A DNA stretch of 64,000 nt from NCBI GenBank assembly GCA_038087875.1, contig CM075992.1, forward strand, positions 8,744,001 through 8,808,000, read 5' to 3'. Origin of the DNA: Malacoraja senta. Its lineage: Eukaryota. Positions 922 to 55,989 of this stretch are shown here, piece after piece. The notes beneath the pieces are model-generated. The model worked only from the letters and a program-made list of their open reading frames with translations. It ran no database searches and had not been told where the DNA came from. Each line of letters starts with the position of its first letter. Position 1 is the stretch's first letter. A program made the position numbers and the translations under genes.

Positions 922-1726
922 CTACAAAGAAAAGCGCTGAAATATTACTTCTTACAATGCAAATGGCCACCTGAACTAATTTTAAATCGCGACAAAAACA
1001 TGGATTTCAACAAAAGGTGTAGCATCGCAAAAGGGCCTGCTCCACAATGTGACTTTCAACACTTGGTTAAGTAATTGACCGGATAACATAGTCCAGAGTA
1101 GACACAGGGACACACGTCACAGTGGCGCTGTGGTAGAGTTGCTGCCTTACAGTGCCAGAGACTCCGATTCCATCCTGACTACAGGTGCCATCTATACGGA
1201 GTTTGTTCGCTCTCCCCGTGAGTTCTCTCCGGTGTCCTCCCACACTCCAAAGACGTACAGGTTTGTAGGTTAATTGGCTTGATATAACTGTAAATTGTCC
1301 GTTGTGTGTGTAGGATAGTGTTAGTGTGTGGTGATCACTGGTCGGTGCGGACTTGGTGGGCCAAAGGGCCAGACTCCATGCCGTATCTCTGAGACTAAAA
1401 CAGCAGATGCTGGTTTACACACAAAAAAAAAAGTATTTGAGAACTCAGCAGGTAATATAGTATCTCTGGGGGACATGGATAGGTGACGTTTCCCTTCTGA
1501 GGGTATGAAGACGGATCTCGACCTGAAACACCGCTTATCCGTGTTCTCCAGAGTTGCCGCCTCACCTGCTGAGTTCTCCAGCACTGTGTTTTTTACACAA
1601 GACAGTTAACAGTAACTACTCTTCAAAGAGACATCGTTGGTTGCAAACCTTTCAAGGGCACGTACAAAATTAAAAATAGCCCTCAATATAAATGCAAGTT
1701 TTTAAAAATATCATATTGCAGTGTTA

Positions 1727-2046: not shown

Positions 2047-5000
2047 TTATGCTGCTACCAAGGTTTAGCTGTCTTGCTTTGAGGCCATAAAATCAAATGA
2101 TTATTAACTCAACACTCCACATCCGACTTTGCACTGTCAAGTAACGTGTGAGTTCACTGGAAAGCGGTTGTGAAATGCCAGCTCCAGACAGTGCACACTT
2201 GGTTCTCATTTATAGCCAGCAGCATAATCAAGGACAAGTCCCATCCTGGTCACTCCCTCTTCTCCCCTCTCCCATCAGGCAAGAGGTACAGAAGTGTGAA
2301 AACGCACACCTCCAGATTGAGAGACAGTTTCTTCCCAGCTGTTATCAGGCAACTGAACCATCAACCAGCAACTAGAGAGCTATCCTACCTATCTACACAT
2401 TGAAGACCCTAGGACAATCCTTAACCGGACTTTACCTTGCACTAAGGTAGACAAAAATGCTGGAGCAACTCAGCGGGTACGGCAGCATCTATGGAGCGAA
2501 GGAAATAGGCAACGTTTCGGGCCAAAACCCTTCTTCAGACTGATGTAGGGTGGGGGGGGGCGGGAAGAAGAAAGGAAGAGGAGGAGCCAGAGGGCTGAGG
2601 GAGAGCTGAGAAGGGGAGGAGACAGTGAGGGCTACCTGAAGTTGGAGAAGTCAATGTTCATGCCTCTGGGGTATAAACTGCCCAAGCGAAATATGAGGTA
2701 CTCCTCCAATTTCTGGTGGTCCTCACTCTGGCCATGGAGGAGGCCCAGGACAGAAGGGTCAGAGCTTTTCCCTAAATCTATGCACTGTGGGCGGCCTGAC
2801 TGAAATCATATATAGTCTTTTCACTGACTGTTTAGAGCGCAAGAAAAAGCTTTCTGTTTCAGTTTATTGTCGCTTGTACCGAGGTACAGTGAAAAGCTTT
2901 TGTTGCGTGCTATCCAGTCAGCGGAAAGACAATACATGATTACAATCGCATGATTACAATGTACAGATACATAATGTTTAGTGCAAGGTAATGCAAGTAA
3001 AGTCCGATCAAGGTTAGTCTGAGGGTCACCAAAGAGGTAGTTAGTAGTTCAGCAGTTCAGGTCAGTAGTTCACTGTACCTCTGTACACGTGGCAATAAAT
3101 TAAACTACTCTATATTAAGACTGCATTATATAATGGTCAGGTAATCCCGTGCTACCTGCTCCATGGTCGGAGGAGTTTCAAGGAAAATGTAGAATAAATC
3201 ATTGTTAGCTAGGTTTGCCAGGTGAGGAGGGGGCTGTGGACCCCCAGCAGGACCAAAAACAAGACCTGTCAAAGGGCGGATAAGCTTCCAGCGAGCCATC
3301 GGCCATCCACACCTCAGTAGAAGTTGCGATCACTGTCGTACATAGCATTGTAAGGCCCGTTGATGTTTTCAACGATGATGATGATGCATTATATTTTCCA
3401 CCAGTTGCAAAATAATGTCCAGAGAACAACAGATATTGTCTGTGCCCAAGAGCCATTTCCATTATACTGCTTACTGGCCTGTCACTAACATTAGAGTAAA
3501 CCAGAACCCATATTGGGCTTTTGAGCAATTATGCCAACAGCATTAAAAGTCGACATGCACATCCCACCCCTAGCACGTTACAATCCTGTTGCACAAAAAT
3601 TAAATCCATGGTATTTCACAAAAAAACGCATTTGGTTACAAGCAGCACCTCGCTTTCAAAGTTTTGAGGTCTGAAGAAGGGTCTCAACCCGAAACGTCAC
3701 CCATTCCTTCTCTACAGAGATGCTGCCTGACCCGCTGAGTTACTCCAGCTTTTTGTGTCTATCTTTTTGAGATTATCATTTAGCTAATGTGCATCGAGTG
3801 ACAATTTGTTAGATGCTGTGGACATTTCCACTGGAGACTATAACGAACAACACACATCCTCAAACTAAATAGTTTATAGTCTATTGTCGCATGCACTGAA
3901 GTACAGTGAAAAGCTTTTTTGTTGCATGCTAACCAGTGGAACGATCAGATGGTTATATCAAGCCGTCCACAGCGTACAGATACTGGATAAAGGGAATAAC
4001 ATTTAATGCGTGATAAAGCCCGGTAATGTCCGATTAAAGATAGTCCGAAGTAGATGGGAGGAATGCTTTTTCACACTTCTGTCCCTCTTGCCTGATGGGT
4101 GAGGGGAGAAGAGGGAGTGCCCGGGGTGAGACTGGTCCTTGATTATGCTGCTGGCCTTGCCGAGATAGGGTGAAGTGTCAGACTTCCATTCATTCTTTGG
4201 CAAGTTCGTTCATCTCATTCAATGTCAGTCTTATTTCAGAGGAGTAGAGTTTCTGCCCCTGAACACTGTGAACCATGGATCCAAAATCAGGATGCCACAC
4301 TGCTTTGTGTGCTTTGATGCCACACGGAGATATCACAGCATGTTTAACAGCAGCTCCAGGCCAACCCTGTGTCACCGAGCCAGGACAGGGACTTTAAGGC
4401 AAAGATATGATGCTACATTTTTAACTTCGAACTTGGAGACACAAGATGGTGCCAGAAACACGGTGACTCTACAGTTTGAGGGGCACAGTGGCGCAGTGGT
4501 AGAGTTGCTGCCTCACTGCGCCACAAACCCGGGTTCCATCCTGACTACGGGTGCTGTCTGTACGGAGTTTGTACGCTCTCCCCATGACCGTGTGGGTTTT
4601 CTCCGGGATCTCCAGTTTTCTCCCACACTCCAAAAGGCATACAGGTTTGTAGATTAAGTGGCTTGGTATAATTGTGTGTGGGGATTGCTGGTCAGCACGG
4701 ACTCGGTGGGCTGAAGGGCCTGTATCTCTAAACTAAACCACGCGACTGCCTCAATGTAATGTACAATTACCATTTTAAACTTGGATTGAATTGTGCTTAA
4801 GTTTACTAAATTGTAAGCAAACAAGAACTTGACTGTACCGAGATACATGTGACATTAAAGTACCATTGAACAATGAATGTTTCAGCATCCAGATTGTACT
4901 ACCATGGGGGATTAGAATAGTTATGTACAATGCAAATTTGTATCATAATGGACAAAACAAAAAAACATTATTGAATGCAATGGGGAAATTATAAATGAGT

Positions 5001-5142
5001 TTAGATTTTTTTTTCAAAAGCAACATTAGTTGATAATTAGAACAATAATATTATTATCATTCTAACCTTCAACTAATGCTGCTTTTGTAAAAAAAAAAAT
5101 TCTATACATCTACATTGAGTTAGTCACAGTGTAAACATAGTG

Positions 5143-5331
5143 AGCCTGTCCCACTTTGGCGACTCTAGGCAACTGCCAGGGACTAATTTTAATGGAATTC
5201 ACTGACAACACCTGGCGACAACCTACGACAACAAAAATTGTCGCCATTGCCCTGGAAATTTTTCAACATGTTGAAAATTTTGTGGCAATCGCCTGCAGTC
5301 GCCCAAAAAATCGCCTAGGTGGGACAGGCCC
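5143..5331. mobile_element. Harbinger-type MITE
   Basis: gcctgtcccact...gtgggacaggc TIRs, and shares the core ttttcaacatgttgaaaa with 1727-2046. Confidence 0.65.
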
Positions 5332-7679
5332 ATAACTGCCATTTTGTTCATATTAGAAACCAGCCTGTCTATTTCTGAGCTCTTGGGCAAAACGCCAACA
5401 ATTTTGAGACACCTTTGACATCGATCACTTCATTTTCACAGCAATTCCTATCCACCCTAGCGACCAGTACTGGCCTGGACAGAAAGGTTAAGGTGACAGA
5501 GGACTTTCTACTTTCCTATCCAAGTTGGAATCAAGATAATGTTGCTGATCTTTCAGTCTCTGCCTCTTTCCAAAGTTCAATATCAGTTACTACTCTAGTC
5601 ATACAGCATGGCAACAGGCCCTTCGGCCCAACTTGCCCACACCAACCAACATGTGCCAGCTACCCCAGTCCCACCTGCCTGCGTTTGGTCCACATCCCTC
5701 TAAACCTGTCCTATCCATGTACCTGTCCAAATGTTTCACTATCTTTTATGAAATATCCAGAATAACTAGCAAGGACATTGCCAAATCACAGGCTTCACTG
5801 TTTGACCTGTACGACATCAATAGATCTTAGCTTTCACAGCAACAAGAGCTCTTAAACTAGAGCAAGAGGGAGATCTAGCTGAGGAATTGTTCCCTACTAG
5901 TCACGATTGCCAGACAGGGCAGAATCAGGCCCAAGGAGACTGCAGGTGCTATCATCTTGAGCAAAACACAAAGTGCTCAAGCCAGCATTATCCGAGACCA
6001 ACAGCACCCCTGCCATCGCGAAGAAGGTACAGGAGCCTGAAAACTGTAACATCCAGGTTCAAGAACAGCTTCTTCCCTACAGTACAATTATTGTACTATT
6101 ACAGCGTGAGTGTGTGTGTGAGTGGGTGTGGGTGTGAGTGTGTGAGAGATTTCATTGTTCTATCTGGGACATGTGACAATAAAACACTCTCTTGAACTCA
6201 GATTAGGCACTATATGTGGAGGGAATGGATAGGTGACATTTTAAGTCGGGACCGTTCTTCAGACTGATGGAGCGGGGGGGGGGGGGGGGGAGAGAAAGTC
6301 AGAAAAGAGAGGTGGGGTGGAACAACACTGGCGAGTGATAGGTGGGTACAGGGGGAGTGATTGGTAAATGGGTGGAGGCAATAAAGGGAAGAGGTGAAAA
6401 GGAGACAAAATGGTGTCAGATAAGGAGAAGAGGGGGATGTGGGAAGCTATGGGCTCTCGCATGGGCCCCAGGTGCGCCATTTTATTGTTGGTGACGTTGA
6501 ACACTCTTTCCAAATGAGCCCCTGCAATATTCTGCTGAGTTCCTCCAGCACGTGTTTTATCTCAGAATCAGGCCCAGCTTTGATTTCCCCCACCCAAACA
6601 CTCACAATTAAAAAGGCAGCTTGATAGACTGTGGAACATATACGGTGGGATTGCTCCCCAGAACCAGCATCTTTGGGAGACACAGGGGTGAAGATAGAAG
6701 TAAACCTGAAATTGTGCACCGCATCTGGTCCTTGAATCGCTGTTCATCAGCGTAGTCAAATCTCGCCTAGTCAGAAACATCCATCACTTAGTTCACTGTG
6801 AAGGAAGGAACTGCAGATGATGGTTTACACCGAAGATAGACACAAAATGCTGGCGTAACTCAGCGGGACAGGCAGCATCTCTGGGGAGAAGGAACGAGTG
6901 ACGTTTCAGGTCGAGGCCCTTCTTCACACTGAGTCAGGGGCGAGGGAGACACAGAGATAAGCAAGTGCAAGGTGTGACATCAAAGGTGTGCGTGCAAGGT
7001 GTGACATCACGAGACATCAAAGAAGATGAGTGTCAAGGAAAATGTAGAATAGATCATCATTAGCTAGGAGAAGATGACAATGAAACAGGGATAAAACGTA
7101 ACCAAGGGGACAGTCAGACTGGTCTGAGAACTTGGAAGGAGGGGGGATGGAGAGAGGGAAAGCAAGGGTTACTTGGAAGTTAGAGAAGTCAATGTTCATA
7201 CCGCTGGGGTGTAAGCTGCCCAAGCGAAATACAAGGCGCTATTTCTCCAATTTGCACTGGGCCTCGCTCTGACAGTGGAAGAGGCCCAGGACAGAAAGGT
7301 CAGTGTGGGAACGGGAGGGGTAGTTAAAGTATTTAGCAACCGGGAGATCAGGTAGGTTTAGGCAGACTAAGCGAAGGTGTGAAGCCAAGGAATGCTGTTC
7401 CTCTCTGTAATGGTCACTGTGAAACCAAGGACTGCTGTCTCTCTTTGTAATAGGCAACCCACCCAAAGGACATTTTGTGCAGAAACACTATATGCTAAAA
7501 CACCACTTTCCAGTTAAAAGGGTGTGGTAGCTGTTGTCAAAGAATGGAATTTGAAAGCAGGGCAAGAGAAAATGGGGCATATTTCACATTTTACAAGAAA
7601 GTTCAACCAACAGCCTAAAAGAGCAAGAAAGGATGAGCTGATATATTGAATGTAACCATCTTGAAAGTCCTCAATAACA

Positions 7680-7899
7680 GGTGGACAAAATTGCTGGAGA
7701 AACTCAGCGGGTGCGGCAGCATCTATGGAGCGAAGGAAATAGGCAACGTTTCGGGCTGAAACCCTTCTTCAGACCCAATACGTTTCGGCCCGAAACGTTG
7801 CCTATTTCCTTCGCTCCATAGATGCTGTCTCACCCGCTGAGTTTCTCCAGCAATTTTGTCTACCTTCGATTTTCCAGCATCTGCAGTTCCTTCTTGAAC
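7680..7899. mobile_element. Fold-back Penelope pseudo-LTR insertion
   Basis: Two inverted arms, flanked by agtcctcaataaca (7666-7679 / 7900-7913). Confidence 0.8.
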
Positions 7900-8364
7900 A
7901 GTCCTCAATAACACTCAAGAAACACATGAATGAATAAATCACACAAATATAAATCTCAGTTCAGAACACAGAAGGCAATGAGAATGCTTATGTATAGAAC
8001 ATATATTTCTGACAGGTCATGTTAAAAGTGGACTAAACAATTGTTAGGCTACCTCTGGGTAACACACAAGGATCTGCAGATGCTGGAGTAACTCAAAAGG
8101 CCAGGCAGCATCTCTGGAGAACAGTGATAGGCGATGTTTCAGGTCAGGATCTTTCTTCGGGTGTGAAGGGTCCCGACCCAATACATCATCCATCCACGTT
8201 CTCCAGAGATGCGGCCTAAGGCTCTGAGTTACTCAGGCACTTTGAGGATTAAGTCAGCCACCTGGTTGAAGGGTAAGAAGAGATTTGAGAATATAAAATG
8301 TGTCCGCAAAGCAGGAAATTCAATACAGAAAGCCACAACCTATTTCAGAATATACCTGGTGGAC

Positions 8365-9939: not shown

Positions 9940-10800
9940 CCGGGGCTGTGCGGGGGCTGAGTGGGCAGGGGGGTGGGTGGGGATGACTGCGGTGTGAAGG
10001 GACGGGAGTGGCGGGGATGTCGGGCCCGGAGATGGGGAGGGCGGGTTTGGGGAGATGGGGACGGCGGGTTTGGGGAGATGGGGACGGCGGCGGTGGGTGA
10101 TGGAGACCGGGGGCGGAGGTGGAGGTGGAGGCCGAGGTCCGGGGGCAGCCGGCGGGGTAGGAGGGAGGGGAACGGGGGGGGGGGGGAGCGTCCTCGGGCC
10201 GAGGCGCCGCCGCTTAGGCCGGGACTCTCACTAGCGTCCGCTGTTAAAGGTGCTCCGCCATCGCCGTCTCTCCACCCGGCGCTTTAGGCCGAGAGCGCAT
10301 CCAAGCCGCTCCGTTCCTTCTCCCCGCTGCCGTCGCCGCCTCGGCCGTTCGCGTCGCTCCTCTCCCTCTCTCAGGGGGGAAAAAACAACCGCAGAGCAGG
10401 CGATCGCGGCGGCCGCCTGAGCCGGGCGCAGGCGCAGAACCGCCCCCGGATGCCCCAGCTGTTGGTTGACCGGCGGCCGGCGCGGTGGGGGGATCTGCGC
10501 AAGCGCGGGGCTGCGGGGCTGCGGGGCACCACGCAGGCGCAGAGCGGAGAGGGAGGAGCTGCGGGGCACCGCGCAGGCGCAGAGGGAAGAGCTGTTGTAG
10601 GAGTCGCGCATGCGCGGGGCAGACTGCCAGTTGGACGGACGGACGGACGGTTGGTACGGAAGCCCGGGGAGGTCGGTACGTCCGTCGGTCGGTGCCCGGG
10701 TTCCGCGGTCCGTCTCCCTCCCGCCTCACTCCACTCCCGGCCGGCAGCATGAGTGTGGATAAGGCGGAGCTCTGCGACAGTCTGCTGCTATGGGTGAGTG
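9940..10800. promoter_or_regulatory. CpG island / HOOK2 promoter, probably bidirectional, with NRF1-type motifs
   Basis: Very GC- and CpG-rich against an AT-rich background. Palindrome CGCGCATGCGCG at 10605-10616, GCGCAGGCGCAG-like sites at 10426, 10531 and 10571. Confidence 0.8.
10749..10793 (+). CDS. HOOK2: HOOK2 coding exon 1 (MSVDKAELCDSLLLW)
   Basis: Matches the vertebrate HOOK2 N-terminus (human MSVDKAELCGSLLTW). ATG context agcATG, GTGAGT donor at 10794, inside a CpG island. Confidence 0.93.
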
Positions 10801-11238
10801 GGTGGTGGGGGACGAGGGAGCAAGGGGAGAGTGAGTGAGGGGTAGGGGGTAGGGGGTAGGGGAGAGGGGAGGGAGGGTGGAGAGAGAGAAAATGGGGGCA
10901 AAGGGTAAAGGTGTGGAATGGATGGTGGGGGAGGGGAGGGGCGGTGGGGGCAAGGGAAGGGGTAAGAGATGGGGGTGTGAGGGGCGCAAGGCTCTCACCC
11001 CAACCACAGACTTTACCCCCCTCCCATCCCGGAGGCGCTACAGGTCTCTCCGTTGCCGGACCAGCAGGTTCAGGAACAGCCACTTCCCTGCGGCTGTTAC
11101 CCGACTTAACTCTGCACCTTGGTGATTGCCAGTCATCCCCCCTCGCCGGACACTCCTTCCCCCAGTGACTGATCTCCCCCCCCCCCCCCCCGAAATTTGC
11201 ACTACTGCTACTGTATATACATATATATATATATATGT

Positions 11239-11266
11239 CTGAAGAAGGGTTTCGGCCCGAAACGTT
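11239..11266 (+). ncRNA. Minimal hammerhead ribozyme-like motif (Penelope-associated), representative copy
   Basis: CUGAAGA-A-GGGU(UUCG)GCCC-GAAAC-GUU: core boxes, stem II and palindromic AACGUU. Stem I is very short. Confidence 0.55.
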
Positions 11267-14200
11267 GCCTATTTCCTTCGCTCCATAGATGCTGCTACAC
11301 CCGCTGAGTTTCTCCAGCATTTTTGTCTACCTATACATATATATATGTTACTGTTCCATTACTGTTTTACTGTTCACACTTCTGGGTGAGATGCTAACTG
11401 CATTTCGTTGTCTCTGTACTTGTACACTGCACAATGACAATAAAGTTTGAATCTGAGAGGAGGGGGTGGAGAGTGGGGAAGGGGCGCAGGGCAGGCGGTG
11501 GGAGGTGAGGGGATGGGGAGTGAGAGGTGGAGGGCTAGGGGTCCTGGGGAGAGGAGCAGGGGATGGTGCTGAGGGTGATGGTTAGCGAGGGACATGGTGT
11601 GAGGTTTTGCTACCTGTGGATACACCACATTGGAAGAGGCTACAACGACAAAAACAGCCTGCATTGACATGGAGCCACAGGCCAGGGGTGGGCTGGGGTC
11701 CATCTGCAGATATGGCAGGTCATGCGGCCCCTTGTGCTGCTTTATGCCCTGGGATCACAGCCAGGGTTTGACTCGGCCCACTCCCCTTCACTGGTCCAAC
11801 CGTCTCTGAGGCAGTGGGAGCTACAGTGATGGAGTGGCTGCCCTGGGGATTGAACCCCTGGCTCCTTCCACGAGGTTGGGAGGTCTCCCTCCCAGCGCCT
11901 TGGCCAGCAGCTTGCCTTCCGTCAACTTCAAAGATCACGGAGACATTATCACCTACTATGCATAGGTTGCACTGTGTCTCCTGCATGTGGCAAAGATTTC
12001 ATGTCCATAAGTGATAGGAATAGAATTAGGCCATTCGGTCCATCACATCTACTCCGGCATTCAATCATGGCTGATCTATCTTTCCCTCTCAACCCCATTC
12101 TCCTGCCTTCTCCCGATAACCACTGACACCCGTACTAATTAAGAATCTATCTATCTCTGCTGTTTATCGGAATGGCTGATCATCGGAAACAACCTCTCCA
12201 CATCCACTCTATCCAAGCATTTTACCCTTATTAATGTTACTAAAACAATGCAAGAGGTGTCCAAAACCTTGGACAACATAACAAGAGAGTTTTAATGGGG
12301 AAGATGGGTGGGGGGGGGGGGGGCGGGTTGTTAAAAGAGAGAATTTTAGGAATATGAACTCGCTGTTTTGAAAATGAGCAATATTACAGACCTATGGAAT
12401 ATAATCAAGGCAGTGGAATACGTTTATAAGGCAGTACACATCCAGTGAAGTATCTGGCCTCTCTCACTGTTACAATATTTGATTTATAGAAGATCCTGTT
12501 TTATTAAGAGGAATATGGTAGGATTGTAGTGTGAAATGTTGAAATGCGTTGAATCTTGTAGATTAAACCTTCCATGTAAGTTCTACAATTTGTCCTATTA
12601 TTAAACTGATGCAATATGTACGGAGCCCCTAAGGCAGTTCGTCGTTGTCTACAACCTCGCTCTGGCAGCTCCTGCGACGGCGCTGGTGCCAAACTGTAAC
12701 GGCCCTGCTGTTCCTTTGGATCGATCAGCGACGTGGAGAGGGGGGACGTGCTGCATGGGCAACAGCCTGTCCACCATATGACATCGCCCAGGCTTGCATC
12801 CGACCAGGGTACATCACCCATGGTCAGTCATGACCGAGAGGGGGCCTACATTTAAAAATATATTTTATTTGTGGCCGCACAGTGGTGCAGCTAGTAGGAC
12901 TGGAGACTAGGGTTTGATTTTGACCTCAGGTGCTGTCTGGGTAGAGTTTGCACGTTCTCCATGTGACTGTGTGGGCTTCCTCCGTGTTTCGGTTCTGGGT
13001 GCTCCGGTTTCCTCCCACATCCCAAAGACGTATGGGTTTGTAAGTTAACTGGCCTCTAGTGTGTAGGGAGTGGATGAGAAAGTGTGCTAACATATGGGTG
13101 GTCGCCTGTCAGCATGGAATAAGTGGGCCTGTTCCCCGCTGAATCTCTAACCTGAAAAAACAAAGTCATTATGACTGCCGTGAATCTTTAATATTATTAC
13201 TTGAAAAATTCAACAACAAAAATATATAGGTGAATTTGCGTAGAGTTGCGTTGTCGTATACGACGGGTCATTTGTAACCCCGAGGATAGACACAAAATGC
13301 TGGAGTAACTTAGCGGGTCAGAGTTTCTGGAGAGAAGGAATAGGTGACGTTTCGGGTCGACACACTTCTACGGACAGTCAATTGAGTCTGAAGAAGGGTC
13401 TCGACCTGAAACGTCACCCATTCCTTCTCTCCAGCGATGCTGCCTCACCCGCTGAGTTACTCCAGTATTTTGTGTCTGCCTTCGATTTAAACCAGCATCT
13501 GCAGTTCTTTCTTACACATCTGCAGTTCCTTTCTGCACATTAACTCCACAGATGCTGGGTACTCTGTTTGCATTAGGTTTTTTTGATTTATACTTTTCCA
13601 ACTATGCTCTTTAGATTGTTCTATTAAGCTTTGAGTCAGCATGTTCTGATTCAAACACCAATTAAGACTTCAATTCCTAATGCAGGTTGACATTTAACTT
13701 CAGACGGAGATGCATTGGTGTCCTCCTGAGGATAGCAATGATCCGCCTGTTCCAAAGAAGCAGATGCCTATTAAACATTCTATCGCTGCTTAATGGCTTG
13801 GAGTACTGATTTCTGCAAGAGATTCCTTCAATGTTCAACACTGTTCTTTAATCGGATACAGTGATTATATTTTTGTCCAAAGGACTTCAAAAAGTGATTG
13901 TGCAGTATTTGGGACACAGGGTACACTTGAGGAGATTTTTTTTTTTTGCCTTTTCAGTAGAGGTAAAAAATATTTGGTTTGTTAGACCACTAAAGCTATT
14001 TTTAGGTACGTTTCTTTCAAAATCAAGTGAGTGATGGCATCGGTTGCAGCGTTGCAAGGCTGCAGCTCTACTGCTGTGCCACGGTTCGATCCTGACTACG
14101 GGTGCTGTCTGTACGGACTTTGTACGTTCTCCCCACGACCTGCTTGGGTTTTCCCCGATATTTTTGGTTTCCTCCCACACTCCAAAGACATACAGGTTTG

Positions 14201-19530: not shown

Positions 19531-21436
19531 CATATAGTTACCAGACTACAATTGGAACAGAGAAACAGGAGGTAGTGGATACCTAAAATAAAAACAAAAA
19601 TGGTAAAAGGGCTCAACAGATCAGACAGCATCCATGGAGGGAGAACGACCAAAGATTCAGATCAATGATTCTCCATGAGATCTGAGTCCAGAACCAGGGG
19701 CCACAGTTTAAGAATAAGGAGTAAGCCATTTAGAACGGAGACGAGGGAAACACTTTTTCTCACAGAGAGTGGTGAGTCTGTGGAATTCTCTGCCTCAGAG
19801 GGCGGTGGAGGCAGGTTCTCTGGATGCTTTCAAGAGAGAGTTAGATAGGGCTCTTGAAGATAGTGGAGTCAGGGGATATGGGGAGAAGGCAGGAACGGGG
19901 TACTGATTGGGGATGATCAGCCATGATCACATTGAATGGCGGTGCTGGCTCAAAGGGCCGAATGGCCTACTCCTGCACCTATTGTCTATTGTCTATTGAT
20001 CAGGAGCGGCACGGTTGCGCAGCGGTGGAGTTGCTGCCTTACATCACCAGAGACCACGGGTGCCCTCTGCACGGTATATTTGTATGTTCTCCCTGTGATC
20101 ATGTGGGTTTTCTCCAGTTGTTCCGGTTACCTCTTACACTACAAAGACGTACAGGGTTTGTAGGTTATTTGGCTTCTGTAAATTGACCCTAATGTATAGG
20201 ATAGTGCTAGTGTATGGAATCATCGATGGTCAGGAACAGGTGAAGAGAGCAGAGGTAAAATGTGTGATGGAGATTAAACTCGTCAAAGTAAATATTACTT
20301 TGAAAGTAATCAGTTAGAGGCAGAGGTCATAAGGAATAGGAGTAGAATTAGACCATTCGGCCCATCAAGTCTACTCCACCATTCAATCATGGCTGATCTA
20401 TCTCTCCCTCCTGACCCCATTCTCCTGCCTTCTCCCCATAACCCCTGACACCTGTACTAATCAAGAATCTATCTATCTCTGCCTTAAAAAATATCTACTG
20501 ACCTGGCCACCACAGCCTTCTGTGGCAAAGAATTCCACAGATTCTCCACACTCTGGCTAAAGAAATGTCTTCTCATCTCCTTCCTAAAAGAACGTCCTTT
20601 AATTCTGAGGCTGTGACCTCTGGTCCTGGACTCTCCCACTAGTGGAAACATCCTCTCCACATCCACTCTATCTGGGCCTTTCACTATTCTGTATGTTTTA
20701 ATGAGGTCCCCCCTCTTTCTTCTAAATTCTAGCGCGTGCAGGCCCAGTGCCGTCAAATACTCAGCATAGGTTAACCCACTCATTCCTGGGATCATTCTTG
20801 TAGACCTCCTCTGGATCCTCTCCGGAGCCAGCACATCCTTCCTCGGATATGGGCCAAAAATTGCTCACAATAATTGGATGAAAGAAAAGAAGGAACAGTT
20901 TGAAACAGGAGGAAAACACAAAGAGCTGGAAGAACAGCGGGTCAGGCAGCATCTGTGGAGGGAATGGTCGGCGATGTTTCAGGTTGGAGCCTTGTTTCAG
21001 TCAAGCCAAGAGTCAAGAGAGTTTATTGTCATGTGTCCCAGATAGGACAATGAAATTCTTGCTTGCTGCAGCACAACAGAATATTGTAGGCATGAATACA
21101 GAACAGATCAGTGTGTCCATATACCATAGAATATATATATACACACTTAAATAAACAGATAAAGTGCAATAGGCTGTTATAGTTCGGAGTTTGATTGAAG
21201 TTGTGTTTAATAGTCTGATTGAAACAAAAGCATCCAGCCATTTGGAGGCGTACAACATGGAAAGAGGCCCTTCCGCCCAACCTGCTTCCGCTAACCAAAA
21301 TGGCCCATTTACACCAAGTGCCTGTCAGTAAAAGAAAATTTGTGGATTATTTTTGCCGATTGTTAGTGACCGTGATGAATGTTTTGCATTCTTCTATATT
21401 GTCCCAGTTAAGAGTGGTTCTGTATCTTTTTTGCAG

Positions 21437-25034: not shown

Positions 25035-25458
25035 TGATCGTTTCGCCGAACAACTCCGCTTGGTCCGCATTAACCAACCTGATCTCCCTGTGGCTCAGCA
25101 CTTCAACTCCCCCTCCCATTCCGAATCCGACCTTTCTGTCCTGGGCCTCCTCCATGGCCAAAGTGAGCACCACCGGAAATTGGAGGAGCAGCACCTCATA
25201 TTCCGCATGGGCAGTCTGCACCCTAGCGGCATAAACATTGACTTCTCCAATTTCTGGTAACCCTTGCTGTCTCCTCCCCTTCTCAGCTCCCCCTCAGCCC
25301 TCTGGCTCCTCCTCTTCCTTTTTCCTTTCTTCTCCCCGTCCCCCCTCCCCCACCCATCCTACATCAGTCTGAAGAAGAGTTTCAGCCCGAAACGTTGCCT
25401 ATTTCCTTCGCTCCATATATGCTGCTGCACCCGCTGAGTTTCTCCAGCACTTTTGTCT
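25035..25458 (+). mobile_element. Penelope-like element 3' end (GIY-YIG C-terminus, 3' UTR and hammerhead-like motif)
   Basis: PVAQHFNSPSHS...RKLEEQHLIFRMGSLHPSGINIDF followed by CTGAAGA..GAAACGTT. Other copies at about 2447-2760, 6800-7385, 16205-16475, 37510-37760, 51855-52235 and 59520-60045. Confidence 0.82.
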
Positions 25459-29204: not shown

Positions 29205-29426
29205 AGATAGACAAAAATGCTGGAGAAACTCAGCGGGTGCAGCAGTATCTATGGAGCGAAGGAATTGGGCAACGTTTCGGGCCAAAACCCTTCCTCAGAC
29301 TGAAGAAAGGTTTCGGCCCGAAACGTTGCCTATTTCCTTCGCTCCATAGATGCTGCTGCACCTGTTGAGTCTCTCCAGCATGTTTGTCTACCTTCGATTG
29401 TCCAGCATCTGCAGTTCCTTCTTAAA
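29205..29426. mobile_element. Fold-back Penelope pseudo-LTR insertion inside a CR1 fragment
   Basis: Inverted arms meeting at cagactgaaga. TSD caagaaccaaagga (29191-29204 / 29427-29440). Confidence 0.82.
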
Positions 29427-32045
29427 CAAGAACCAAAGGACATAGGTTTAAGGTTAGAGGGGCAATATTTAATATTAACCTGAGGGACAACTTTTTCACA
29501 CAGAGGGGGATGGTTGTATGGAACGTGCTGCCTGATGAGTGGTTGTGACAGGTACTATAACAGCATTTAAAAGATACTTGGACAGGTACCTGAATAGCAA
29601 CAGTTTGGAGGGATACGGGCCAAACGCAGGCAAATGGCCATCTTGGTCGGCTTGGACAAGTTGGGCCGAATAGTCAATAGTTAATTTTATTCGTCACATA
29701 CACATATAAGTGCAGTGAAATGAATTTGCCAGCAGCGATACAATTAAAAATGAACACACAATACACAATAAGATTTAACACAAACATCTTGTTTCTCTCT
29801 CAGAACAAGTCTCTGAAGAATAAGTCTCTGAAGGACTTGTTTCCATGTTTTATGGCTCTGTGACTGTGAAAGTTGATTCATCTAAGAGATAGACACAAAA
29901 TGCTGGAGTAACTCAGCGGGTCAGGCAGCATCTCTGGAGAAAAGGAATAGGTGGCGTTTCGGGTCCTTTTTCTCCAGAGATGCTGCCTGATTCGCTGAGT
30001 TACTCCCGCATTTTGCAACAAGGTATGAATCCATGTCCATCGGCTGAACAACTATTGTGTTCACTGTGCAACCATTGTGCTTTTTTTGAGGCAAAGATGA
30101 TTTCAAACGGCAGATTTTATGTTCAAACCTACTTGCAAGGTTGCTCTGCTGTCTTTTGTCAATATAACATGTGAGGAAAGATAACACAGGATGTTTTCTG
30201 CACCCGCTTTTCAGAGCTTCTGTTTCTATTCATCGTAGCGATTGCATTTGTTTGATCGAAAAATGGCCTTCAAGGGCACACAGCAGCCATTATTCCCATT
30301 GCAAAGACGCAACAAAGATCATTTGTTTAAATGACTAAGTATGTTAACAGGAGCATAAATTAAAGAGAATCAAGGGCAGGTTTCGTTTGTTTAGTTTAGT
30401 GTAGAGATACAGTGCGGAAACAGGCCCTTCGGCCCACCGAGTCCGTGCCGACCAGTATCCCCGCAAACTAACACTATCCTACGCACTAGGGACAATTGAC
30501 TATTTTTTACAGAAGCCAATTATCCTACAAACCGGTACGTCTTTGGAGAGTGGGAGGAAACCCACGCAGGTCGTGTAACTCCGTACAGACAGCACCCGTG
30601 GTCAGGATCGAACCCGGGTCTCTACTGCTTTGCCACCGCGCCACCCAGGTGTTTAGTTGTTTCCATAGTTCCCTCTTGCCCTGAGGGAGTTGTCGATGAA
30701 GGAGCGACCTGTTGTCTTAACTCCATTGACATTACTCGCAAGGATGTTGATGGTGAATCTACAATATATGTTAACAGTTTATGCCAAGTTTCTTTAATGC
30801 TTCCAGGATTTTGGAGAAGGTGTTAAATGCACAAGATGGTAAACTGAGGCCTTAAATGAACCTAAAAATATTTATATATAGTAGCTCTATTCAAAGATCA
30901 GGCTTGCTCTTGGAAAGAGGGACCAATCCACAGCGAACATCACCTGGAGGTATATAGAAGCAAGGAACTGCAGATGCTCTTCACAAACCCCCCCCCCCCA
31001 ACAAATTGCTGGAGTAACACAGCATCTCTGCAGAACATGGATGGGTGAAGTTTGGGGTCGGGACCCTTCTTCAGACTGATTGTGCCAGGGGTAGAAAGCT
31101 GGAAGGGAGGAGGGCCAGGATAATGCCTCGCAAGTAATAGGTGGATAGACACAAAATGCTGGTGTAACTCAGCGGGATAGGCAGCATCTCTGGAGAGAAG
31201 GAATGGGTGACGTTTCTAGTCATGATCTTCAGAAGAAGGGTCTCGACCCGAACCGTCAACCATTCCTTCTTTCCAGAGATGCTGCTGGTCCCACTGAGTC
31301 ACTCATGCATTTAGTGTCCATCTTTGGTTTAAACCAGCATCTGCAGTTCCTTCCTACACCAGTAATAGGTGGATTCAGGTTGGGGAGGGGGGGGGGGGGG
31401 AGAGTTTGATGGACACATGGTTGGACAAAGGCCAGAGATGCAAAGACAGAAGGTGTGAGTACACGTGACAGCTTTAGTTGCGTGCTAACCAGTCAGTGGA
31501 AAGACAATACATGATTACAATCGAGCCATCCACAATGTACAGATACATGATCAAGGGAATAACATGAATAATGTTTAGTGCACGGTAAAGCCAGTAAAGT
31601 CCGATGCTGCCTGACCCACTGAGTTACTCCAGCATTTTGTATCTAAGTCCGATCAAAGATAGTCTGAGGGTCACCAATGAGGTAGATAGTAGTTCAGGCA
31701 CCACTCTCTAGTTGGTGGTAGGATGGTTCAGTTGCCTGATAACAGCCGGGGAGAAACTGTCCCTGAATCTGGAGGTGTGCGTTTTCACACTTCTGTACCT
31801 CTTGCCTGATGGGAGAGGGGAGAAGAGGGAGTGGCCAGGGTGAGACTGGTCCTTGATTATGCTGCTGGCCTTGCCGAGGCAGAGTGAGGTTGTAGATGGA
31901 ATCAATGGAAGGGAGGTTGGTTTGTGTGATGGTCTGGGCATGCGTCCACAATTGGATTGTCTTGAGGTTGTTTGGTGACCATGCACTAGATTCCCAGAAT
32001 AGAGAGAGTCCCTTTGCTTTAATTTCAAACTCGCTTTGCCTTCAG

Positions 32046-35666: not shown

Positions 35667-36707
35667 GTGAGTAGACAAGGCCGCATTAAAATCTTTCTCT
35701 GAAGCCAGCCCTTGGTCTGAATAAATGTGTTCGAATTGCTGGTTTATTTGAAAATGAACAGGTAGAGCAAAGTCAGATCATTTGTCCTCATGTTTTGTGG
35801 TCATGTTTTTGTGTGCTTTACTGTTCTAACCTCACTGTAATAAACCCTCATAATTATGGATCACTGGGGGAGGGGGGGGGAAGAATGGTGGCCATTGTTG
35901 CTGATTGTCCGCTATAACCGAGTGAGGGGGGGTAAAGTTTAACTCAAGGCCGGGTAGGGAGGAGGGTGGGGGTTAAACACGTAGGAATTCACGGGCCGGG
36001 GAGCCCGGACGCGGTGCACCGGGAGAAGGGCCCGGTGCTCACTCCGCCTTCATGCTGCCTGCTCTGTCCACTCCCACACCCACTAGCGTGTCACGTGCCG
36101 CCTGCTCCCCGGGCAACTGGCAGAAGTGGGACGATGCATCGGAACTTTGGTTCGCTATAACCCAAACCCGCTGTATAGAGGCCCGTTATTGCTAGGGTTG
36201 CCAACTTTCTCACTCCCCCGCCCTCTACACGCCTTCAAGCATGCAGTAACTCTTCACTTCAGGGGTACCTCTTATTGAGCCTGACGCATGTTTGTGAAGC
36301 CATACAATCTTGAAGTGTTCAAACTAAAAGCATTCAATCTACTATTTATAACCCCTTGGATTAGTTTCCAGTGTACATTTTCCTTCTTACTTTCCGCCTT
36401 AACGATGTTAGATAGACACAAAATGCTGGAGTAACTCAGCGGGACAGCCAGCATATCTGGATAGAAGGAATGGGCGACGTTTCGGGTCGAGACTGAAGAA
36501 AGGTCTCGACCCGGAACGTCACCCATTCCTTCTCTCCAGAAATGCTGCATGCCCTGCTGAGTTACTCCAGATTTTTGTGTCCATCTTCGGTGCAAAGCAG
36601 CATCGACAGTTCCTTCCTACACATTAGCGATAAGTTAGACATCCTGCTATCTGGACTCATATTTGTCACTGCGGTTGGTAATCTGATTTATTTTTTCTGT
36701 TCTCCAG

Positions 36708-37410: not shown

Positions 37411-40400
37411 GTGAGTACTCGTGAGCCGAACCTCTGTGGTAACGGGTGAACAGGTCTCTATATAATTGAAGGGTGCCAAAAACTGAAAGAACAATCAAAT
37501 TGTGGCACTGCAACTCCTCCCATTCCCAATCTGACCTTTCTGTCCTGGGCCTCCCCCATTGTCAGAGTGAGGCCCAGCGCAAATTGGAGGAACAGCACCA
37601 CATATTTCGCTTGGGCAGCTTACACCCCAGTGGTATGAAGATTGACATCTCTAACTTCAAGTAGCCCTTTCTTTCCCTCTCTCTCCATCCCCTCCCCAGT
37701 TCTCCCACCTGTCTTACTGACTCCAACCACATTTTATCTCTGTACCCGCCCACTCCCCTGACTTATATCCTACATCACTGTGTTTTGCTAGATTTTTCCA
37801 TACATCACCAGGCATGTCACAGTCTAAACTTAACGCAAGTATATATTTGACAAACGGGTCAGTTTTTGTTTTTATGGGCAAGTGCTTTTCTGAAGCACTG
37901 ATCAGTTCTTAAGTTGGTTTAAATTGACAGGCCCATTTCTGATGGAGCAGGTCAGCACACAGACAGTACCTTTGTCATCTTGCCGGCTGTGATATTGTAA
38001 AGTTCATGTGTGTGAGGACTTTGTTTTAAAAGACAAATAACTTTCTTCTTCCTTTTCCGAAGCGTTTTGGCCATTTTACTGTGTAAAAGTTGTCATGTAT
38101 GCACGCGCAGTCTTCATTTGGGGTGTTCAAGTAAAATACTCTTCTGGACATTGATTTCCCTTCAAATAAAATATTATACCCCGAGTATAATTCCTCAATA
38201 TCCGTTTTGAAAATGAGATATAAATTCTGATGGAGACACAAGAGATCGCAGATGCTAGAATGTGGAGCAATAAATGAAGTACTGGAGGAACACAGCGGTC
38301 AGGCACAGTGGACAGACGACGTTGACTATCCATTCCCTCCACAGATGCTTTTTGACCCGCTCAGTTCTTCCGGCACTTGATAAATTCTGATACCCATTTT
38401 GTGCTTTTGAAATAGCTGCTGCTATGTTTTATTGGGAATGCAGAGGTCCAACATGACATGTGATGTTTCATCTTGCCACTGTTGTAATTAGTTTAGTGCA
38501 GTTTAGAGATAAAGCACGGAATTAGGCCCTTCGGCCCTCTGAGTCCATGCCGACCAGTGATCACCGCACACTAACGCTCTCCTACACACTGTAGGGCCAA
38601 TTTACCATTATACCAAGCCGTTTAGCATACAAACCTGTACGTCTTTGGAGTGTGGGAGTGTAGTTTAGAGATGCAGCGTGAAAACAGGCCCTTCAGCCCA
38701 CGTCGACCAGCGATTCCCGCACACTAACACTATCCTACACACACTAGGGGCAATTTTACACATACACCAAGCCAATTAACCTACAAACCCGCACGTCTTT
38801 GGAGTGTGGGAGAAAACCCACGCAGGTCACGGGGAGAACGTACAAACTCCATACAGACAACACCCGTAGTCAGGATTGAACCTGGGTCCCTGGCGCTGCT
38901 GCACCTCTATTTTGGCACTTTTTGAATCTTTATGTCCCTTGTCCATGCTGACCAAGTTGTCAAATTGGTCTACTCCCATTTGGCACATAGCCCTCTAAAC
39001 CTTTCCTATCATGTCAACTACACTTGCTTCTGAATGAGACAACCTATTCCTTGGAAAGTACTCAGTAAACTCAAACATGGTTTTAAAAATGATTTTGCGG
39101 GTCTTCTCTTGCCACTTCATAAGCTGACGTGGATTTGTTAAGTTTTCCTAATGTGCTTCCTACAGCCCACACAAAACATTTTAAATGATCGTGAGGCTGA
39201 GAAACCTGATTTACCTTTTCACTTGCAATCTCTATCCCTTCCTGTCCCTGTGTTTATCATTTTCTCTTTTAATACCTGTCTTTAATTTGATTTAACATCT
39301 CTTTCCAACTTTGATCCCTTGCCTGCACTATTCAGCGTCATTGAGTCACAAGGCACGGAAACAGGCCCTTCGGCCCAACTTGCCGATGCCGACCAAGATG
39401 CCCCATCTACTCTAGTGCCAAAGCACCACCCACATTTGGCCCGTATCCCTCTAAACCTTTCCTATACAAGTACCTGTCTAAATCCCTTTTAAATGTTGTT
39501 ATAGTATCTGCCAGAAATGGCGGCACGGTGACGCAACGGTAGAGTTGCTGCCTTACAGCTCTCGCAGCGCAGGAGACCCAGGTTCGATCCCAACTACGGG
39601 TGCTGTCTGTACGGAGTTTGTACGTTCTCCCCGTGTCCTGCGTGGGTTTTCTCCAAGATCTTCGGTTTCCCCCCACACTCCAAAGATGTACAGGTTTGTA
39701 GGTTAATTGGCTATGTGTAAAATTGTCCCTAAAAGATGTGTGAAGGATAGTGTTAGTGTGCGGGGATCGCTGGTCGGCGCGGACCGAAGGGCCTGTTTCT
39801 ACGCCCTATCTCAACTAAACTACCTCCTCTGGCAACTCGTTCCATATACCCACACACAGTATGAGAGTAACTCAGCGGGTAAGGCAGCATCTCTGGAGGG
39901 TCCCGGCCAGAAATATCACAAATTAATCCATGTCCTCCAACGATGCTGCCTGACCCGCTGAATTACTCCAGCACTATTTTTTTTTGTAAACCAGCATCTG
40001 CAGTTTCTTCTGTCTAATAATTTGTCCAATACATTTGCTTCATAAGGGCTAACGACTAAATGGCAAAAATAAAAATTCTGAGAACCTGATTAAGGTAAGT
40101 TTTTATAAAAGTAATTTTGGAAAACTAAATTTTAACATTGGTTAAAATAAAATTTAACAATATCATTTTAAATCTATACCTGGCTGTACAACATATTAAT
40201 CAACTAGGAATTAAAATCTGCATGTGCATACTTAACAATGTCATTGCTGCCCCTTTTGGCATGGCTTTTGTGATATAGTGAATATAATTTAGTTTCTTCT
40301 ACAATGATCATAGGTTGGAAGATTTGTAGTTTGATGCGATAAATCTTTGTTGCATTGAAGCACACAAAACTGAAAGATATAGGCCCACATGCAGTGGTAA

Positions 40401-49374: not shown

Positions 49375-51060
49375 AAGAGAAAGCATATAACAGTGCAAAG
49401 ATTAGTGGGAAGCCAGAGGATTGGGAAGCTTTTAAAGAACAGCAGAAGGTAAATAAAAAGGCAATACGGGGAGAATAGATGAAATACGACGGTAAGCTAG
49501 CTAATAATTTAAAATAATTTCTTCAGTTATATAAAGAGCAAGAAAGAGGCAATAGTGGACGTTGGGCCGCTGGAGAATGATGCCGGTAAAGAGATAATGG
49601 GGAATAAAGAAGGCAGAGGAGTTGAATAACTTCTTTGCATCAGTTTTCATAGTGGAAGACACCAGCAATGTGCCTGAAATGGAAAAGAGTCAGGGGGTGT
49701 AATTTAGTGCAGTGGCTATTTCTAAGGAGAAGGTGCTTGGGAAGCTGAAAAGGCTGAAGGTGGATAAGTCACCTGGACAGCAGGCTAAGGTTCTGAAAGA
49801 GGTGGCTTTCGAGATTGTGGAGGCATTAATAGTAATATTTCAAGAATCACGAGAGTCAGGGGTGGTTCCAGACGATTGGAAAATTGCCAATATTACCCTG
49901 CTGTACAAGAAGGGAGCAAAGCAGAATAGTGGGAACTATAGGCTGGTTAGTCCGACTTCAGCGGTTGTTAAGATTTTAGAGTCCATTATAAAGAATGAGG
50001 TTTGTGTAAGAAAGAACCGCAGATGCTGGTTTATATCGAAGGTAGACACAAAATGCTGGAGTAACAGTGGGTCAGGCAGCATCTCTGGACAAAAGGAATG
50101 GGCGACGTTTCGGGTCGAGACCCTTTGTTCAGACTTAAAGAATGAGGTTACGGAGTACTTAGATCGATTAGACAGCTGCAGCTGATTCAGAACGCTGCTG
50201 CTCGAGTCCTCTCTAAGACTAAGAAAGTGGATCACACTCCAGTTTTGAGATCTTTACACTGGCTTCCAGTCTGTCAAATAATTGATTTCAAAATATTACT
50301 GTTGGTTGATAAAGCACTGAATGGTCGAGGGCCAAAATACATTTCTGATCTTCTGCTACATTATGAACCACCCAGACCTCTGAGATCATCTGGGTCAGGT
50401 CTGCGTTCTGTCTCCACAATCAGAACTAAACATGGAGAAGCAGCGTTTAGTTTTTATGCACCACATATATGGAACAAACTTCCAGAAAAATGCAGGTCGC
50501 TCCAACTCTGTTCTTTTAGAAACATAGACAATAGGTGCAGGAGGAGCCATTCGGCCCTTCGAGCCAGCACCGCCATTCATTGTGATCATGGCTGATCGTC
50601 CCCTATCAATAACCCGTGCCTGCCTTCTCCCCATATCCCTTGATTCCACTAGCCCCTAGAGCTCTATCTAACTCTCTTAAATCCATCCAGTGACTTGGCC
50701 TCCACTGCCCTCTGTGGCAGGGAATTCCACAAATTTTAAATTGGGGCTGAAGACTTTTCTGTTTGACGCTACCTTTAATTACTTTTAATTTTAATTAAAT
50801 TAAATAATTATTCATATGTAACACGACACTGTAATTTTAATTCTTGTATTTTATACTTGCTTTATTGTATTTTAGCTTGTTTTTATTTTCTATTCTTTTT
50901 AATGACTTTTTAATTGCTTTTCATTGCTTTTTAATTCTTTGTGTAAAGCACTTTGAATTGCCTTGTTGCTGAAATGTGGTATATAAATAAACTTGCTTGC
51001 TTGCTCGCTCAGATGTTCATGATAAAATAAGCCAAAGTCAGTATGGTTTTGTGAAGGGGA
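49375..51060 (+). mobile_element. CR1 fragment carrying nested Penelope-tail, L2 and HER1 insertions
   Basis: VVPDDWKIANITLLYKKG...GNYRLVS, with CR1 sequence resuming at about 51015 (caaagtcagtatggttttgtgaaggg). Confidence 0.75.
50165..51005 (+). mobile_element. L2-clade LINE 3' part
   Basis: LQLIQNAAARVL...PVLRSLHWLPV...LRSSG. End tgtaaagcactttg...ataaataaa(cttg)n. Confidence 0.85.
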
Positions 51061-54140: not shown

Positions 54141-55989
54141 TAGGTGCAATTTACAATAATACTTTATTTGCTACATGTACAGAGGTACAGTGTTATTGTA
54201 TATAGTTTAGTACAAGTATCACTATCCATCAGCACTTAGATACATCTTAGATCAGCATCTCAGATACAGTACAAGTGTACAGCAGTAGTACACTGAGACA
54301 GTCTACAGAGTCGCCATTTCCAAGTCCCAGTTGTTGTAAGTGCAGGGATCTTGACCTGACCGTGAAGGCCCGTTGTCATGGCGACAGTGCAGGGTTGGCC
54401 TGGCCAAGCGTAGCCGTGGTGTCCTCCACCGCTGTAGGCCGCGTGCGGTCCACGTGCTCGGCCTCTTGTAGCGGCGCCCGGTCCAGCCGAGCCCCAGGGT
54501 GCTGCAGGGCCTCCAGCGGCCCATTCCCCCGTCGAGGCCCTGCACTCCCTCCCGCAGCCCGTCTGCTCACCGGCCCTCTGTTCCCACTCCCTCCTCTCTG
54601 GGTGGGCGAGCTGGCCATTCCGGGCGACTTCATGCCTGCTTTGCAAGGGAAAGAAACGTGTTGATGGAACCTTCTCGACACTTTACCCTGCCAAATGACA
54701 GTGAACAAAGCAACAACCATGAAATCAAGGACAGCGTAAAAAATTCCATGTTGGAAAAGTAAATTAAATTCAGTGGATGGCAGAGGCTGGAATTCTGAAA
54801 ATAAAGCAGAAGATGCTGGAAATGTTCTGTGAGTCGGGCAGCATCTGTGGAAGAAGAACATTTCGGGGCCAGGAACCTGTATCAGAACTGGGAAAAGGAG
54901 AAACTGTTAGTTTGAAGTTGCAGAGGGTGTGGAAGGAATGGAGAGGACAAAGGAACTATTCCTGATGGTGTGCCAGGGCTGCGGTGGTTAGAGGGCCAGA
55001 GGAGGTAGTTGAGGCTGGGACTATCCCACCGTTTAAGAAACAGTTGGTCAGGTACATGGATAGGACCGGTTTGGAGGGTTATGGACCGCTGGCAAGTGGG
55101 ACTAGGGTAGCTGAGTAGGTGTTTCACAGAGGTTAGAGAATGTTAAATTATATGTTGACTTGTCCATTAAACACCTGCTTTGAAGTATTAATACTAATAA
55201 GGAGCGGCACGGTGGCACAGCATTAGAGTTGCTGCCTTACAGCGCCTGAGTTTGATCCTGACTGCGGGTGCTGTCTGTAGGGAGATTGTACATTCTCCCT
55301 GTGACCACGTGGGTTTTCTCCGGGTGCTCCGGTTTCCTCCCACACTCCAACGACGCACAGGTTTGTAGGTTAATTGGCTTGGTAAAATTGTAAATTGTTC
55401 CTAGTATGTGTCGGGTAGTGTTAATGTGCGGGGATCGGTGGTGGGTGCGGACTCAGTGGGCCGAAGGTCCAGTTTCCGCGCTGTATAGAGTCCTAGATTA
55501 ATACAGTGTGGAAACAGGCCCTCCGGCCCAACTCGCCCACACCGGCCAACAATGTCCCAGCAACCCTAGTCCCACTTGCCAGCGCTTGGTACATAACCCT
55601 CCAAACCTGTCCTATCCATGAACTTGTCCAACTGTTTATTAAACGGTGGGATAGTCCCAGCCTCAACTACCTCCTCTGGCAGCTTGTTCCATACACCCGC
55701 CACCCTCTGTGTGGAAAAAGTTACCTCTGAAGAAGGGTTTTCGGCCCGAAACTTTGCCTATTTCCTTCGCTCCATAGATGCCTGCCTCACCCGCTGAGTT
55801 TCTCCAGCATTTTTGTCTACTTTGATTTTCCAGCATTCCTCCTTAAACCTCTTTTCAAATTCCTATTTACCTCCGTATAAATTCCTATTCCGGATTCCTA
55901 TTAAATCTTTTCCCTTCACCTTGAACCTATGTCCCTCTGGTCTCGATTCCCTGAACTAAATTAAACTACTTCATGTTTTGTTGTTGCAG

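Follow-up and report, generated by a model that had tools for sequence, protein, structure and literature searches.

The 64-kb stretch of Malacoraja senta DNA analysed here (the window) carries a host HOOK gene, which we take to be HOOK2, whose first coding exon lies on the plus strand at 10749..10793 beside a CpG island and whose plus-strand exons at 41774, 51620 and 58340 match the Pfam HOOK family. No host gene was found in positions 1-10400 among the 61 of 84 frames scanned, which gave only pieces of Tc1-like transposases. The repeats of the window include a long CR1-like LINE fragment with a reverse transcriptase (RT) domain at 43003-44603 (Pfam RVT_1, E 3.7e-26), another RT fragment on the minus strand at 19146-19661, and remnants of Tc1/mariner-like transposases at 8474-9522 (HTH and DDE_3 matches) and, as read by eye, at 52815-53096. 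Four inverted-repeat pairs that are unrelated to Penelope-like elements (PLEs), at 24695-24828, 44718-44949, 51193-51495 and 54995-55680, are probably MITEs or inverted LINE ends, and a run of 200 Ns at 60587-60786 marks an assembly gap.

Fold-back copies of a short repeat

Searching the window with a profile built from 18 of its own copies returned 50 matches, among which 12 head-to-head pairs were recognised over the whole window (one arm was read by eye). All seven palindromes of ~200-240 bp reported in a first-pass annotation of this DNA are present, and five more were added. Each palindrome consists of the last 95-130 bases of an element in two copies placed head to head. Positions within the element are given in a model numbering in which the C of CTGAAGA is 5, stem II spans 13-24, GAAA spans 25-28 and the predicted ribozyme cut falls after 32. 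The copy at 7680..7899 (subfamily A) has a tail-less antisense arm at 7680-7774 that reaches model 3, a 7-nt filler and a tailed sense arm at 7782-7899 that begins at model 15, and its arms are 95% alike. Subfamily A also includes the stub at 29205..29426, whose arms are joined by a CTGA overlap (target site duplication, TSD, 29191-29204/29427-29440, 14 bp), and that at 61223..61426, with a tail-less arm to ~7 and a tailed arm from 17 (TSD 61210-61222/61427-61439). To subfamily B belong the stubs at 13285..13537 (both arms to model 2-3, a 9-nt filler, a partly duplicated tail and no clean TSD), 31147..31360 (TSD 31133-31146/31361-31374, 14 bp), 36411..36622 (tail-less arm to 15, tailed arm from 2-5, TSD decayed or absent) and 58610..58811 (tail on the left, TSD 58597-58609/58812-58824, 13 bp), the last of which sits inside an older copy of the same element. 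Among the added fold-backs, those at 1397..1592 (old, tail on the left), 8078..8245 (old, both arms tail-less), 29887..30015 (inner ends at model 20 and 39) and 39856..40012 (inner ends at model 46 and 12) yielded no TSD, and the old copy at 38232..38379 (tail on the left) is flanked by an exact 12-bp TSD (38220-38231/38380-38391). The two arms are 68-95% alike in 11 of the 12 fold-backs and never identical; the oldest copy aligned poorly.

A scripted search found an exact 14-bp TSD around the 7680 copy (7666-7679 on the left, 7900-7913 on the right, plus strand) and agreed with the earlier report of flanking duplications in five palindromes: TSDs of 13-14 bp flank 5 of the 7 listed copies (14, 14, 14 and 13 bp exact, and 13 bp with 1 mismatch at 61223). 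No TSD was found by script for the 13285 and 36411 copies, at which decayed look-alikes were seen by eye only. One of the five added copies has a TSD (12 bp), so that 6 of the 12 fold-backs carry TSDs of 12-14 bp, and 4 of the 11 non-fold-back copies tested carry TSDs of 11-15 bp; an exact 10-bp repeat was reached by only 2 of 300 random position pairs. The 58610 palindrome duplicated 13 bp of the older same-element copy that it entered (58535-58850), and self-targeting is predicted for PLEs in the available part of PMC11167929.

The outer ends of the seven listed copies follow the description given before, of one arm with a fixed end and the other with a tail of ~38 nt: tail-less arms end at model ~96-100 and tailed arms at 132-135, and the one-sided tail measures 34-38 nt in all seven. 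Outer ends are less fixed in the five added, older copies (model 79-98). With respect to the centres, the claim had been that the junction differs between copies and always falls at the CTGAAGA..GAAAC motif. The first part stood, as all 12 centres differ; the second held for the seven listed copies, in which 14 of 14 inner ends lie at model 0-17, within or immediately ahead of the core and stem II, but failed in three of the five added copies, which have one inner end at model 28-46, outside the hammerhead motif. The inner ends of 58610 and 61223 were read by eye, as local alignments over- or under-ran the centre. The shorter arm begins in stem II (model 15-17) in 4/7 copies, the longer arm passes the whole motif, to model 0-9, in 7/7, and the centres of 5/7 show overlaps of 1-5 nt.

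Twelve different centres, two subfamilies and separate TSDs sustain the proposal that each palindrome arose independently. The suggested check of whether the two arms of one copy resemble each other more than arms of other copies did not show this beyond subfamily and age, with arms coming out as mutual best matches in 3 of 24 cases. A MITE or foldback DNA transposon was rejected on the grounds that 12/12 centres differ and that the tail makes the ends asymmetric.

Relation to Penelope-like elements

The Penelope-like origin proposed for the palindromes is corroborated by longer copies, which carry the C-terminus of a GIY-YIG endonuclease followed by the hammerhead motif, the body and the 34-38-nt tail. 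The 5'-truncated plus-strand copy at 25037..25455 comprises an endonuclease C-terminus (25036-25257), a pyrimidine-rich UTR, a core at 25369 and a tail-less end, between TSDs at 25022-25036/25456-25470 (11 bp exact, 15 bp with 1 mismatch). Its core lies ~110 nt past the stop codon, placing the motif 3' of the end of the ORF, and the same order recurs in two minus-strand copies, a subfamily-B copy at 6800..7380 (endonuclease C-terminus, UTR, motif, tail) and a subfamily-A copy at 2444..2763 (endonuclease end, UTR, motif, tail-less), which also served as the reference for public contigs (see below). In all, the endonuclease end was matched at 6 places in the window. The 74-residue piece encoded at 25036-25257 has no Pfam match and is similar to 589 proteins at E up to 0.001, with best identities of 79% and 74%. 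GIY-YIG was recognised in 13 of 16 homologues scanned, and one of them (P0044, 47% identical) contains an RT followed by GIY-YIG. Pattern scans of viral and metagenome contigs gave 0 matches, and the 64-kb window contains no full-length element, no pLTR-ORF-pLTR (pLTR, pseudo-LTR) tandem and no RT domain of the element.

A zinc-finger-like cysteine motif within the linker that joins the RT to the endonuclease (EN) marks the Neptune and Nematis clades, according to the available part of PMC8557442, and such a motif precedes the endonuclease in P0002, P0007 and P0044 (by eye, in homologues, the linker being absent from the window). We infer a Neptune-type PLE, a clade call that is indirect because it rests on the cysteine motif in homologues. 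On the basis of the longer copies and the homologues, the palindromes, the solo copies and the endonuclease-bearing copies are truncation products of one family with at least two subfamilies, and the small palindromes, judged by sequence, are the shortest insertions of an endonuclease-bearing PLE.

In five of the homologous proteins (P0001, P0002, P0003, P0065 and P0093) the endonuclease end is fused to unrelated host or LINE sequence; such fusions are most likely gene-prediction artefacts in fragment-rich vertebrate genomes.

A predicted minimal hammerhead

The tail-less arm of the 7680 copy holds a complete minimal hammerhead motif on the minus strand (7743..7774, predicted cut after ~7745), made up of the 5' strand of helix I, the CUGAAGA core, an extra A, stem II, GAAA and a palindromic ACGU. 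The tailed arm of this copy is without the core, and most palindromes have the whole motif in one arm only. As far as the consulted part of PMC4209133 describes it, the minimal PLE hammerhead has the core boxes, an extra base before stem II, a G-C first pair, a palindromic ACGU and a short helix I. The motif of 20 aligned copies fits this description, in support of the first-pass annotation, which had placed a hammerhead at the centre of the palindromes, and is predicted to be a minimal type I hammerhead of PLEs. Helices I and II pair in 89% of 118 cells versus at most 47.5% for slid partners, and the changes are one-sided; because 455 of 500 shuffles pair as well, the alignment is compatible with the hammerhead structure but does not prove it. 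Rfam returned 0 matches over the whole window at the gathering score and, within 11150-11420, six chance-level matches, none of them to a hammerhead.

A shared 5' boundary of solo copies and palindromes

Among 18 core-bearing copies that are not fold-backs, six start at model 2-5, ten run on into the UTR and two are unclear. The six boundary-starting solos lie at 3669..3764 (plus strand, from model 3, tail-less, 7-bp flanking repeat), 11237..11331 (plus strand, from model 3, tail-less, within a TA microsatellite, 15-bp flanking repeat), 20905..21002 (minus strand, old, from model 3, no TSD found), 50003..50135 (minus strand, from model 2, tailed, exact 14-bp TSD 49989-50002/50136-50149), 55727..55846 (plus strand, from model 4-5, tailed, 6-bp flanking repeat) and 60238..60377 (minus strand, from ~model 2, tailed, exact 12-bp TSD 60226-60237/60378-60389). 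The DNA upstream of these six is unrelated, and under uniform truncation, allowing 100 bins, the rough chance of 6 of 18 copies starting at one boundary is ~2e-6.

We also aligned contigs of four public sequencing runs (X1, X2, X3 and X5) to window positions 2400-2800, which contain a solo-type copy. Among the rows listed, a loose end at 2540 (model 3) was found in 116 contigs of X1, 242 of X3 and 241 of X5, that is, in three organisms, and it was not among the rows listed for X2. The flanks at this loose end are unrelated (agreement 0.34). Contig depth steps ~4-fold or more across 2540, a step given no weight here, since the depth of contigs does not measure copy number and the subfamilies have different upstream UTRs.

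The boundary falls at AG/G, two bases before the core and ~30 bases before the predicted cut, and is common to solos and palindromes. Because both start before the core, copying would run through the ribozyme to a fixed 5' end of the RNA. On its way along the RNA the polymerase encounters the ribozyme from its 3' side, so that a cDNA extending to model 3 must have copied the entire motif. The 5' ends lie ~30 nt upstream of the predicted cut, and ribozyme cleavage was rejected as their origin on that ground; both cleavage and stalling at the hairpin appear to fail as explanations of the boundary. A conserved TCAGT occurs at the boundary, after a pyrimidine tract. This sequence fits the initiator consensus, and it would also fit a splice acceptor. 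In D. virilis, the parts of the sources at hand place the end of an intron at the 5' end of helix I (PMC4209133) and the intron 46 bp after the start site (PMC2377424). A spliced element with an exon 1 of more than 2 nt was rejected, as flanks are unrelated and TSDs abut AG/G. As the flanks are unrelated and the TSDs adjoin the boundary, a first exon common to the copies is excluded, and we lean towards an RNA start at this boundary over a splice-related or other processing end, judging from insertion ends only. The available parts of PMC8557442, PMC3846280 and PMC2377424 yielded no description of solos whose 5' boundary at helix I is sharp to the base.

Formation of the second arm

The observations to be accounted for are the identity of the element, the TSDs, outer ends 34-38 nt apart, the sharp AG/G boundary and the differing centres. 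One explanation is snap-back, in which the ribozyme hairpin halts the RT or turns it round and the enzyme goes on to use its own cDNA as template; it would be in keeping with shorter arms that begin in stem II in 4/7 copies, with the 1-5-nt overlaps at 5/7 centres and with the concordance between arms at 15 of 20 diagnostic sites. However, the longer arm is always past the whole motif, and solos without any inversion end at the same base. Moreover, if one target-primed cDNA simply snapped back, the tail should sit on the longer-reaching arm. A cDNA started at the tail-less site has no tail to pass on to its copied arm, yet the tail is on the shorter arm in 7680 and 61223, in which the tail-less arm reaches further in (3 versus 15 and 7 versus 17, respectively). 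The tail-less arm also reaches marginally further in 29205 and 31147, the tailed arm does so in 36411 and 58610, and the arms of 13285 are even. In addition, the arms of 61223 differ at a dimorphic site, and hammerhead mutants left insertion unchanged in vitro (PMC11167929, consulted in part). Snap-back is thus unlikely, and the proposal that the ribozyme hairpin sets the strand switch lacks support in its original form: longer arms cross the motif, solos start at model 2-5, and in no case does the boundary coincide with the predicted cut (after 32). Microhomology for the shorter arm may nonetheless come from the stem-II palindrome.

A different possibility is self-priming on antisense RNA, or a free hairpin intermediate, after which the endonuclease would shorten one arm or the other by 34-38 nt. 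Self-priming has been proposed for palindromic head-to-head junctions (Arkhipova et al. 2013, PMC3846280, in the part available), a tail has been attributed to resolution by the endonuclease (PMC8557442, likewise), and such a route permits the tail on either arm. It also predicts arms that are identical at insertion, whereas those of 61223 differ; it leaves the solo stubs that start at the same base and have TSDs unexplained, and the tail has been mapped to two RT start sites on the sense RNA (PMC11167929, in part). We therefore hold this route to be quite unlikely.

The palindromes could instead form a non-autonomous fold-back unit that is transcribed and re-mobilised from a MITE-like or SINE-like master, and the first-pass annotation had read them as a non-coding fold-back mobile unit. 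The seven copies are similar in size, and some joints in the public contigs reach 10-30 times the depth of single-copy joints (the kind of joint is not given). Conversely, centres differ in 12/12 copies, two subfamilies and several age classes are represented, and the ends are asymmetric. Because solos and endonuclease-bearing copies have the same ends and TSD length, a separate mobile unit is not needed, and we consider one very unlikely.

On balance, the stubs are probably by-products of target-primed reverse transcription by a Neptune-type PLE, with twin priming from both nicks as the best-fitting route. The GIY-YIG endonuclease would nick both strands 12-14 nt apart, and the RT would begin at one or the other of two internal start sites on the two sides of the tail, as has been shown in vitro for the anole element (PMC11167929). 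A start in the 5' pseudo-LTR of the transcript would allow only 95-130 nt to be copied, through the hammerhead, until the cDNA runs off the 5' end of the RNA at the initiator-like TCAGT or, alternatively, at a splice acceptor like that of D. virilis. A solo stub would result when one nick is primed. When both are primed, one per start site, two antisense cDNAs would come together head to head and be linked via 1-5 nt of microhomology or short fillers, one of them often being trimmed back into the self-complementary stem II. As a variant, a short snap-back could anneal to the second cDNA. In the available part of PMC11167929, a PLE protein nicks and extends both strands and starts at two sites flanking the tail, without need for ribozyme activity.

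Does each arm copy its own RNA? Near model 60-61 lies a two-base site with two common variants in 4/4 public runs (a dimorphic site), and the arms of 61223 differ there, each with one of the alternatives, although this discordant copy could reflect gene conversion or an assembly error. What speaks against a free choice between two templates is that the arms match at 15 of 20 diagnostic positions outside CpGs (~10 expected at random). Rare variants are common to both arms in 7680, 58610, 1397 and 61223, which fits a single template equally, and a permutation test for the sharing of rare variants reached significance in neither direction (p = 0.10). Both the concordant and the discordant arms are accounted for by twin priming that draws mostly on one source locus. 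A more specific two-template reading, in which RNAs starting at the first bases of helix I, possibly as an ACGU-paired ribozyme dimer on a protein dimer, are copied from two nicks, one on each side of the tail, seems to us doubtful.

Fold-backs and the host gene

The first-pass annotation had the fold-backs place long dsRNA stems in HOOK2 pre-mRNA. For the 7680 copy this failed: it sits on the far side of the CpG island, ~2.8 kb upstream of the start codon (10749), and is for that reason not in the pre-mRNA of the HOOK coding region. Nine of the 12 fold-backs do lie downstream of the first coding exon, the remaining three (1397, 7680 and 8078) being upstream, and the seven listed copies are predicted to fold at -112 to -164 kcal/mol, their stacked helices measuring 19-48 bp. 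Location downstream of the exon and long predicted stems would both suit hairpins kept for a dsRNA function in HOOK pre-mRNA (editing, small RNA or splicing). On the other hand, the arms of a copy now differ by 5-30% with no sign of being kept alike, 3/12 fold-backs lie upstream of the gene, and dozens of solos in both orientations could also pair. Retention for such a function is highly improbable, and the stubs, which are non-coding and decayed, are most likely neutral.

Discussion

An inverted copy, a one-sided tail, a TSD and a hammerhead constitute the published architecture of EN+ PLEs. In the parts available of PMC8557442, PMC3846280 and PMC2377424, EN+ PLEs (Penelope/Poseidon, Neptune, Nematis) show, like the stubs, a 5'-truncated copy with an adjacent head-to-head inverted copy, and share with the copies described here a 30-40-bp tail at one end, a TSD, a pseudo-LTR hammerhead and a GIY-YIG endonuclease at the C-terminus. 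Unlike in those elements, the whole insertion here is often just two terminal pieces, and TSDs are 12-14 bp versus 8-10 bp in the A. vaga examples of the texts available. Literature searches outside subscription journals and Repbase listed nothing on such minimal fold-back stubs of PLEs from cartilaginous fishes.

The Poseidon element PAc of Anolis carolinensis (PMC11167929, from the part at hand) resembles the model proposed here in that two RT start sites flank the tail and both strands are nicked and extended; its hammerhead is dispensable for insertion and its protein is predicted to dimerise. It differs in having its start codon at stem II, whereas the CUGAAGA core here is without an AUG, and in its clade (the element here being Neptune-type by inference), and inverted junctions are not treated in the part of that paper available. 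The minimal hammerheads of metazoan PLEs, in the available part of PMC4209133, have the same core, extra base, G-C first pair, ACGU for helix III and short helix I, and occur, as here, mostly as single motifs from truncated PLEs with some opposite-strand pairs. Unlike those hammerheads, stem II here has only 4 bp and a tetraloop, and cleavage here is a prediction.

LINE-1 twin priming yields two cDNAs from two target nicks that are joined at microhomology, with the TSD kept. LINE-1 inversions contain non-overlapping direct and inverted parts of one RNA, whereas both arms of a stub copy the same stretch. Animal non-LTR retrozymes, in the accessible part of bioRxiv 10.64898/2026.07.22.740005, are short, non-coding, hammerhead-bearing and pLTR-related like the stubs, but each is a head-to-tail tandem in which two or more ribozymes are complete, whereas the stubs are head-to-head pairs or solos. 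A non-LTR retrozyme was rejected here, as no head-to-tail tandem with complete hammerheads occurs among the 50 matches.

As the architecture is known and the copies are decayed, the gain lies in mechanistic detail and not in a new system. How PLE inverted ends form is still regarded as open (PMC8557442, PMC11167929, both in part); because the insertions are minimal and abundant, snap-back, antisense self-priming and twin priming on two RNAs become testable by counting. If the two-template reading were true, discordance of arm variants would be a direct genomic read-out of inverted pseudo-LTR formation, given thousands of copies in cartilaginous fishes.

Several other arrangements in the window were also recorded. 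At 51802-52300, sense UTR and a motif that ends just past the predicted cut run into a long antisense copy, which has a further inverted piece in front of it. At 56240-56680, two complementary stretches past the tail flank one antisense and one sense copy; they may belong to the part of the element body that follows the 5' pseudo-LTR downstream. Finally, only 1 of the 15 joints listed on the 2400-2800 reference was an opposite-strand joint. In X1, 9 of the 10 joint rows listed pair 2528-2541 (model 2-15) with 2497-2500 (model 43-46), at depths of 138-993 versus ~30-45 for single joints, the kind of joint not being given. The 39856-40012 fold-back joins just these positions (46 and 12), and a second recurrent junction class may exist.
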